In this document: positions 27,001 through 30,000 of the stretch, in pieces
How positions within the stretch are numbered: the stretch's first letter is position 1
Layout: each line of letters opens with the position of its first letter
From: a virus
DNA length: 31,094 nucleotides
Direction: 5' to 3' (one strand)
UHGV virus genome: UHGV-0087733
Position numbers: made by a program

Positions 27001-30000
27001 ATATCTTTGCCGATGAAATAACTCACTGGATGCCGCTACCAGAACCGCCGCAGGAGGTAAAGTAATGAACAACTTAATGACAACTAAACAAGTCGCCAAC
27101 TTCTGTGGAGTTTCAGTATCGACAGTTCTTCGCTGGAACAGCGTAAACAGGAGAACTGGCCAGAAATACAGGCCAGACTTTCCAGATCCTGATATTAAAT
27201 CATGCCCAAATAAATGGGCATCACGCAAGATTTACAAATTTGCGGGAGTTATTGAGTAACGAGCATTAGCTCAGATGAGAGTTGGTACACCTATGGCACA
27301 GAGCTAAACCTGATCTGTTATATTCGCTCTGTGCCGGAAGTATGCCATATTTATTACATACAGTTGTCAATCTTTAAGACTAATTGTGATTGCATCTGGA
27401 AATCCAATTTGGCTATAGCACATAGTTTCGGTTATGAATAATTTTCTATCGATAAAATCAAGTACATCTTTTTTCGTGAGCCCCGTTAACATCGTCAATT
27501 TGTTAATTACATAATCATACCAATCATGGTGAAGCATGTTTATATACATGTTAATATCAACTGCATCTTTCTTCCATGAATTATTCGGTATCAAATCTTC
27601 AGATAAAAATCCTCTTATTAAATCGCTTGCATAAGACATCCTAAGAAAAACAGAAAGAAAAAGCCTTACATTAACATGTGTAAAATTTGTAGATAGCGTC
27701 GAAGGAAACTCGTAAAACCGGTAGATCAACCGACTTACAAAAACAGCAGAGTCTATCGCATTTACAGGCAGTAATGTTCCGATGACACTTAATGCACCAC
27801 TTATAACGAAGCCATTAGCAACAGAGGCATGAGAACCACTTAGGGCAGATGTTAAACATGCACTCAGAATTACGATAGGAGGAATCCTTGCTATTTTTCT
27901 CAAACTCCAAGTGTCCACTTTATCCTCACCTATTATTAACCATCCATGACTCCCATTGCCATCATGGTTTCCATGACAATCCATAACAAGAATATGACCT
28001 TGATATTGATTTAGAGCATCAATAAACTCAGCTTTCGATCTAACATCAATAATCTCGCAATCAAGATCCGGCATCTGTTTTTTAAATATCTCAATTGCGT
28101 TCTCTAATATGAACTTTAAGTGATCATCAGGCTCAAAAGAACGTATAACTAAAACCTTTCTCAACTCAGATGCTTTTACTAAAACGCGCGGAAAAGCAGA
28201 GGCGCTCTGTAGAAGAACGTTACCAGGCGTAGCATTTATTCTTGATATCTCATGACTGAACATTATAGGTATGTTATTAAACCTAATCCAATCCAATGGT
28301 ACATCACAAACAAAGGACAAATCGCTATAGTTTTTACTTATATATGTTCTCAACTTGCAACCAAGGGCTCTTCGAATAACAGTATTGAATGCTTTAGATT
28401 TAGTGATGAATGCTTCACTATTTATCCCAGAAGAAGTTGCAAGATCTTCAAGATTTTTCAAATAATTGGAGTAATGATTTATTGCATTTGGCAATCTTAT
28501 TGCTGGGATTTTTTTATTTATGCTAAATAAAGTAATCGCAGCTGTTGTTAATCGCATTTCAGCGCGTCTTAGTGAGGTGAGGTAACGGAAAGCAGGACTT
28601 TTAAAAAGTTCTTTTCTATCTGAATTTATATCAAGTCTAATTCCAGAATAGCCTGGATTCCTCAACACTCCATCAATAAGGAATTTTTTCTCAATTGTGG
28701 ATAAATTTTCCGTTATTAACTCATAAAAGTCATTATTTTTATCATATAAAAAAGAGTGCATACCCGGAGCAAAAAGTAAGACTTCCGTTGGAAGTGGTAT
28801 ATCTAATTCCTTTAAACATTCGGTGTATGCATCAACGCTATGAAGTATTATTTCTATAAACTCTCTTTTGCTACTACCATCTTTAATTCTTTTTGGTGGA
28901 GATAGCATATAGCCAAGTGATTCAATTAACAACTCATTGGGTAGTGTTGAATTGTTAAGCGTCGATCTCCAAGGTGATTTATTAAATAAAGCCCCTCTTC
29001 GCTTCAACTTCGTTGATATTTTCTTTTCACTGTGATTTTTTCTTATTTTATCCTCAATGAATTTCAACCGAGAGAAGAGCACCTTATCAAATGAGTATAT
29101 ACTATTAATCTTATTAAGTGGTAGATCAGCGCGTTTAGAATTGCAACAAATTATAGGTGGTATAGCAAAATGTTTTTTTAAAGCACAAACATACGAAAAA
29201 TCTTCTTTAGCACAAAAAATTAAGCAAAATGGCGTTTGATAAATATTTGGTATTTTTTCAAGATTTTCTTTAGATATTAAAAAAATAGGATTTAGCCCGC
29301 TTAGAGTAGGCTGAAAGTTATCATTTTCATTGACAAAAATCTCACTAATTTCTTTTGGTGTTTTGGCCAATAAAAAAAGAATGTTGGATATCTCTGGGTT
29401 GAGGAGGCCAGTATCGAAACCTTGGATTATGGTTTGTTCCCCAGTAGTAGGCATGATTACAACTTTAAGTATCGCCCCGTGTTCCTGTAACAGTTCCATC
29501 AAAAATCCTAATAAACAAATAAAAATGTTATAATCAAAAACTGCAAGGATTAGCAAGCAATTCTTACAGTTTTAAGAAGGGGATTATACCGCAATATGCA
29601 TAATTGCGTTCTGCCTATGCAAAATGTCAGTTCTAGTCTGAACAAGTACAAGTAACTATCGATTCAACTCTCTCCCACCATGCCTGGTAAGCTTTACGCT
29701 GTTCATCTAAATAATCGCTCTTGTCATAAACCTGCCATACCCCTGGCAGTTTATGACCGAGCATTATTTCTGCAATATGAGGTGCAGTAAGATCAGAAAA
29801 GTTTGTTCGTGCTGTTCGTCTCAAATCATGAAGAGACCAATGAGGGAATTGATACCCCAAACGCCGCCATGCGTACTGCATTAAATTGTAAGGCAGCGAC
29901 TGCAATGATGTCCGGCCAACGGGTTCCCTGCTTCCTTCCTTAGTAAAAAGCATATCGGAACCATTGTTCATAGAGATAACGTACTTTATAAGCTCTTCAA

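Follow-up and report, generated by a model that had tools for sequence, protein, structure and literature searches.

The locus between excisionase and integrase

The window, that is, the whole stretch of 31,094 nucleotides analysed (UHGV virus genome UHGV-0087733), contains a long minus-strand gene between the excisionase (xis) and integrase (int) genes of a lambdoid prophage. The ORF, 27367..29556 (-), comprises 729 codons when counted from an upstream TTG, and a stop-free run of that length would arise by chance with a probability of approximately 1.6e-25 at the base composition of the gene itself. Translation probably begins at the ATG at 29499, which has AGGA 6 nt upstream, yields a product of 710 aa, and is also the start of the published BovA sequence. 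The features of the locus are as follows:

27065..27259 (+): excisionase-like HTH gene, 64 aa, last of the early-left operon (Pfam HTH_17, E 3e-4, below cut-off)
27295..27335 (no strand): 10-bp inverted repeat between bovA and xis, found in the sequence
27367..29499 (-): coding sequence of bovA, 710 aa and a stop codon; sole gene of Borvo (ORF, PADLOC BovA match, published BovA)
27700..28323 (-): CHAT/clan CD caspase-like protease domain, about aa 393-600
27856..27858 (-): putative catalytic Cys548 codon (L-S-A-C motif), invariant in 31/31 and 165/165 sequences and aligned with the Csx29 A-C motif
27973..27975 (-): putative catalytic His509 codon (D-C-H-G motif), invariant in 31/31 and 165/165 sequences
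28324..29499 (-): aa 1-392 at the N-terminus, in which a helical bundle comes after alpha/beta domains; presumed regulatory or sensor role
29500..29633 (-): int-bovA spacer, candidate native promoter and RBS (sequence; start of the published construct)
29633..30850 (-): tyrosine integrase gene, same strand as bovA and upstream of it (Pfam Phage_integrase, Arm-DNA-bind_3, Phage_int_M)

Convergent with xis, the gene follows int on the shared minus strand after a spacer of 133 bp, and no further ORF is present between xis and int. Its strand is opposite to that of the early-left operon, the plus-strand genes of which include YfdQ/DUF2303, a YfbR-like 5'-deoxynucleotidase and DUF551. The 64-aa HTH protein encoded at 27065-27259 (+) is annotated as an excisionase in phage cdtI, and a cI-like repressor is encoded at 22613-23305. 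The window holds no tRNA gene; sister prophages, which are annotated with phage genes throughout, adjoin yjjG. With a GC content of 0.341 (GC3 of 0.27), bovA is poorer in GC than int (0.451), the early-left operon (0.472) and the window as a whole (0.499). An earlier sequence-only reading had described a roughly 710-aa, int-proximal ORF that was more AT-rich than the flanking phage genes, opposite in strand to the early-left operon and placed between xis and int, and it was accurate on each of these points.

A second patch of low GC content (0.39-0.41) is found at window positions 5000-6500. It contains an ORF of 170 aa at 5396-5908 (-) with no Pfam or PADLOC match, situated between a tape-measure gene (5990-7822) and the gene for a DNA-circularisation protein (3977-5305) of a Mu-like tail module.

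Since the 'native'-promoter construct known to provide defence starts exactly at 29633, the expression signals of bovA should sit within the 134 nt of 29500..29633, with vector read-through being the alternative source of expression. A consensus promoter scan returned no site in the int-bovA spacer and nothing convincing for bovA. By eye, a perfect TATAAT was located at 29588-29583 (-), inside the published construct and without a good -35, together with a near-palindrome, GCAATTATGCATATTGC, just upstream of it (region 29583-29610, -). Judged from the sequence, these two elements may represent the native promoter and operator of bovA, as candidates only. The intergenic stretch in which bovA and xis converge holds an inverted repeat, likewise found by eye, whose 10-bp arms (GGCACAGAGC...GCTCTGTGCC) enclose a loop of 21 nt. 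This repeat lacks a T-run and was not reported by the terminator scan, and so its function can be proposed only by inference; it is a possible bidirectional terminator and/or recombination boundary that would mark the left edge of a cargo module.

Fold, active site and conservation of BovA

A CHAT domain at aa 488-592 was the only Pfam domain detected in the protein at E <= 10, with a score of 26.5 bits against a gathering score of 24. An AlphaFold2 model generated from a 31-sequence alignment was confident (pLDDT 85.6, pTM 0.87), and the top ranks of a Foldseek search with this model were occupied by Csx29, separase and SAVED-CHAT, in keeping with the CHAT/caspase-like protease proposed in the sequence-only reading. 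No solved structure of BovA was found, by sequence or by fold, in the copies of the PDB searched; run against the PDB, the family profile yielded only a marginal match to Csx29 around the catalytic Cys (E 0.01). The motifs that had been singled out as the context of the catalytic dyad, FIDALNQYQGHILVMDCHGN and IPPIVILSACLTSA, begin at aa 492 and aa 539, respectively, and place His509 and Cys548 the expected 39 residues apart. Both residues, within the motifs D-C-H-G and L-S-A-C, respectively, are invariant in all 31 aligned sequences and in 165 of 165 full-length family members, the median identity of which to the query is 27%. In the profile search, the Cys548 motif falls opposite the A-C motif in the CHAT protease Csx29 (8d9h_E), the cysteine of which we take to be the catalytic Cys627 of Csx29.

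An exhaustive profile search recovered 1090 cluster representatives at E <= 1e-3, of which 493 were at E <= 1e-30. Most of the best 150 of the 1090 representatives are 700-790 aa in length and match nearly the entire profile, which indicates that the whole BovA architecture is conserved, beyond the protease alone. Conservation is nonetheless uneven along the protein, with a mean column entropy of 1.9-2.1 bits for aa 393-600 compared to 2.7-3.2 bits for aa 1-392 and 2.7 bits for aa 601-710; across the family, variation is thus greatest in the N-terminal aa 1-392. No specific structural relative was found for the N-terminal ~390 residues, the model of which gave flavodoxin-like matches and not TPR. 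The C-terminal region is helical. A Walker A motif had been noted as missing from the N-terminal ~450 residues, and a motif search of the BovA sequence was likewise negative.

Identity with the Borvo system

The PADLOC profile BovA (PDLC03831) matches the protein at E 2.1e-241 (801 bits), with aa 4-709 aligned to positions 3-715 of the 720 in the profile. All 31 aligned homologues also match this profile, and the window protein has the best score among them. Borvo is entry SG178 in the supplement of Millman et al. 2022 (10.1101/2022.05.11.491447), which gives E. coli 403116 as the source, a construct of 2569 nt, the description 'CHAT protease' and BovA of 710 aa. Table S22 marks the entry 'Verified', and the verified type protein is BovA, IMG gene 2646127138, of E. 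coli 403116 (Millman et al., 10.1101/2022.05.11.491447). Borvo and CHAT are not mentioned in the main text of this preprint; the data are those of its supplementary tables.

The first 399 of the 2569 construct nucleotides, which are those displayed, are identical to the minus strand of the window; the construct begins at 29633, where the stop codon of int ends. Counted from there, the length of 2569 nt takes the construct as far as 27065, where xis begins, and bovA is the sole gene contained. Likewise, the 399 displayed residues at the N-terminus of BovA from E. coli 403116 are identical to those of the window protein, and both proteins are 710 aa long; for the remainder of both sequences, the evidence for identity is the equal length together with the identity of at least 99.4% among the E. 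coli copies. Full-length copies of this bovA lineage number 32 in 5426 complete E. coli genomes, all at >= 99.4% DNA identity. The exact protein sequence is present on 507 contigs and is 100% identical to the cluster representative 'CHAT domain protein [E. coli]', while phages cdtI (gp33) and Ayreon carry bovA at 99.7% identity under the label 'hypothetical protein'. A second lineage of bovA exists in E. coli, and the possibility that the tested Borvo was this other, 33% identical gene was ruled out by the exact match to the construct.

Given the match of construct and protein, the near-identity of the E. coli copies and the 99.7% identity of the phage copies, comparison of the sequences leads to the conclusion that the window gene is bovA, the type example of the named and tested single-gene Borvo system, and already known. 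The proposal that it encodes a defence or abortive-infection effector is upheld by published experiments on the matching Borvo construct (10.1101/2022.08.27.505566). Its description as undescribed and outside every named system does not stand, in view of the PADLOC match and the match to the verified construct. The sequence-only interpretation is therefore partly supported: fold and function were guessed correctly, and the claim of novelty was wrong.

Homologues and the xis-int cargo slot

Homologues of BovA at 33-68% identity are encoded by stand-alone genes with unrelated neighbours. In Pantoea and on a metagenome contig, they form part of the cargo of conjugative elements (TraU, TraC and TraG genes). 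The neighbours are int and xis in the window, conjugative-element genes at loci L002 and L003, an SMC-like ATPase at L004, and AAA and PLD genes at L008, and no conserved partner or substrate gene was found beside bovA in these five contexts. The survey of homologue contexts, covering conjugative-element cargo, defence-type islands and the prophage slot, thus agrees with a single-gene mobile defence function, and the earlier remark that no partner gene is evident holds, the neighbours differing in every context inspected.

The second E. coli lineage is represented by strain ET350 (L008, NZ_CP100966.1, 4241-6532), the protein of which (WP_137481421.1, 763 aa) matches PADLOC BovA at E 1.3e-220 and shares 33% identity with the window protein over aa 239-709. 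This lineage may have a different trigger specificity. The ET350 gene resides in a chromosomal island, not in a prophage, and adjoins genes for AAA-domain and phospholipase-D-like proteins. At two other loci, a large ATPase is encoded immediately upstream of the BovA homologue (L002, 5192-7627, and L004, 5052-7697; a Pantoea conjugative element and a metagenome contig, respectively). One of these two ATPases has 811 aa and a weak HATPase_c_3 match, the other has 881 aa and is SMC/AAA_23-like, and the pairing is not conserved; they may be other defence genes of the same islands.

The closest prophage relatives of the window (97.3% identity, 89% coverage), such as that of E. coli 98207, possess the same xis and int genes with a dGTPase gene in the slot. 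This gene (L010, NZ_CP173539.1, 27997-29223; PADLOC dGTPase, E 8.7e-105) is equivalent in position to window 27340-29632, and homology to the dGTPase prophage decays just past the 10-bp inverted repeat downstream of xis. As a prophage of 97.3% identity carries a dGTPase there in place of bovA, the xis-int slot exchanges defence cargo. In phage PhiR63_1 (L005, PV340573.1), the slot is occupied by genes for proteins of 377 aa (1627-2760) and 121 aa (2851-3216), neither of which has a Pfam or PADLOC match; in a search for an undescribed defence gene, these two are stronger candidates than bovA.

Approximately 10 of the 32 E. coli copies of bovA look inactivated, by frameshift or IS element. In O121 strains (e.g., RM8352; L009, NZ_CP028110.1, 2501-4632), bovA lacks one base and has been annotated as two ORFs, of 260 and 396 aa. 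One strain has IS600 within bovA, and two have IS1414 in the int-bovA locus. In phage cdtI (L001, NC_009514.1, 1-3782), bovA (gp33) is found on the same genome as cdtABC, encoding cytolethal distending toxin, and the effector gene cif, and a single temperate phage thereby combines virulence and defence cargo.

Mode of action

Borvo from E. coli 403116 has been studied under its native promoter in MG1655 (Stokar-Avihail et al. 2023, 10.1101/2022.08.27.505566). It protects E. coli against several phages, the trigger being the phage DNA polymerase; in T5, SECphi4 and SECphi18, missense changes in the proofreading cleft of this enzyme allow escape (10.1101/2022.08.27.505566). Escape mutants of the SECphi4 polymerase are altered at T13, E91 and D176. 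The SECphi4 polymerase, a family-A DNA polymerase, is by itself toxic only in cells carrying Borvo, and the escape mutations relieve this toxicity; the authors allow for triggering that is either direct or indirect (10.1101/2022.08.27.505566). At high multiplicity of infection, cultures with Borvo either collapse or arrest in growth (10.1101/2022.08.27.505566), which indicates abortive infection. Later literature still terms Borvo 'poorly understood' (PMC11348598).

A literature search returned no report of a BovA substrate, a BovA structure, protease activity in vitro, or loss of defence in His/Cys mutants, and for this reason proteolysis as the killing step is inferred by us from the fold and the invariant dyad. 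Taken as a whole, the best explanation, which we hold with high confidence, is that bovA is the Borvo gene, which a lambdoid prophage of E. coli carries as cargo between xis and int and presumably expresses in the lysogen from the gene's own promoter. In this view, sensing of the phage polymerase, or of a product of its activity, would release the protease from inhibition by the N-terminal region. Once active, the protease would cleave one or more essential host or phage proteins by means of His509 and Cys548, and this cleavage would presumably halt growth before the release of phage progeny.

Alternative explanations

The nature of the proteolytic event is where another explanation carries some weight. 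Separase and Csx29, the closest structural relatives of BovA, are highly site-specific processing proteases rather than bulk degraders, and no BovA substrate is reported in the literature searched. It is thus possible, if the less probable of the two views, that the dyad of the Borvo family does not conduct destructive proteolysis but catalyses either site-specific processing, releasing a toxic fragment as do Craspase with Csx30 and the gasdermin proteases, or transpeptidation, as do some clan CD enzymes. Such processing is at odds with the lack of a conserved partner or substrate gene beside bovA in the contexts inspected (the window, L002, L003, L004 and L008); with no conserved neighbour, only BovA itself or some conserved protein of host or phage could be the processed substrate.

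Two further explanations concern what the gene is for. That bovA serves the life cycle of the prophage, for example in the processing of a phage or host regulator at induction, or is cargo of the virulence type, with the anti-phage effect being secondary, is suggested by its position beside int and xis and by its presence in cdtI with cdtABC and cif. However, homologues of BovA are equally common outside of prophages, in conjugative-element cargo and defence-type islands, near-identical prophages lack bovA and have the dGTPase defence gene instead, about 10 of the 32 E. coli copies are frameshifted or interrupted by IS elements, and cloned bovA alone provides defence in a prophage-free context, all of which renders such a role very improbable. 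Least probable by far is a single-gene defence system unlike every named one: although RefSeq, phage and PHROGs annotations supply no system name, this is refuted by the full-length match to the BovA profile and the identity to the verified Borvo construct over its displayed portion. As a discovery, bovA adds nothing new, being the reference case of a defence system already named and tested. Because the gene still goes under 'CHAT domain-containing protein' or 'hypothetical protein' in RefSeq and phage records, and under 'unknown function' in PHROGs, readers of sequence alone will keep rediscovering it; one scan with defence profiles settles its identity. The xis-int slot, having exchanged Borvo, dGTPase and the PhiR63_1 genes, is a reasonable hunting ground for truly undescribed genes, and the substrate of the Borvo protease and the sensing of the polymerase remain worth experiments.

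Comparison with known systems

Among CHAT-bearing systems, Craspase/Csx29 (TPR-CHAT) of type III-E CRISPR shares 11-15% identity with BovA, which is without a TPR N-terminal domain according to both Pfam and the N-terminal model, and the Csx29 model NCBIfam NF041237 scores 14.7 bits against BovA relative to a cut-off of 300. Their genetic contexts also differ, being Cas7-11/gRAMP, Csx30 and a CRISPR array for Csx29 as opposed to int and xis of a lambdoid prophage for bovA, as do their modes of activation, by target RNA for Craspase and, according to the literature, by phage DNA polymerase for Borvo. Membership in Craspase/Csx29 was rejected on account of the missing TPR, the sub-threshold model score, and the absence of Cas7-11/gRAMP, Csx30 and a CRISPR array. 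With SAVED-CHAT (8tl0), a protease that cyclic oligonucleotides activate in type III CRISPR/CBASS-like systems, the likeness is confined to the protease domain; no SAVED domain was detected in BovA by Pfam, bovA has no cyclase or CRISPR partner, and membership was rejected as Pfam reported only the CHAT domain. Gasdermin-activating proteases are encoded adjacent to a gasdermin gene, in contrast to bovA, beside which none is present or conserved in homologue contexts, and this group was rejected because there is no ORF between xis and int besides bovA. Separase and the gingipains (clan CD) are 10-14% identical to BovA, with unrelated N-terminal regions, and their biology, cohesin cleavage and a secreted virulence protease, respectively, is unrelated to that of BovA.

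Borvo is listed among the CHAT-protease systems (PMC10952713). Two traits of the system, a lone gene lacking any conserved partner and a CHAT domain in which the His/Cys dyad is conserved, are both present in the window gene. The ET350 lineage is likewise a full-length BovA match that retains the DCHG and AC motifs, but its N-terminal ~240 aa are not alignable with the window BovA by BLASTP. Between the window gene and Borvo of E. coli 403116, there is no detectable difference over the sequence displayed in the published entry: the visible nucleotides and amino acids, the length of 710 aa, and the flanks, from the int stop to the xis start, are the same.
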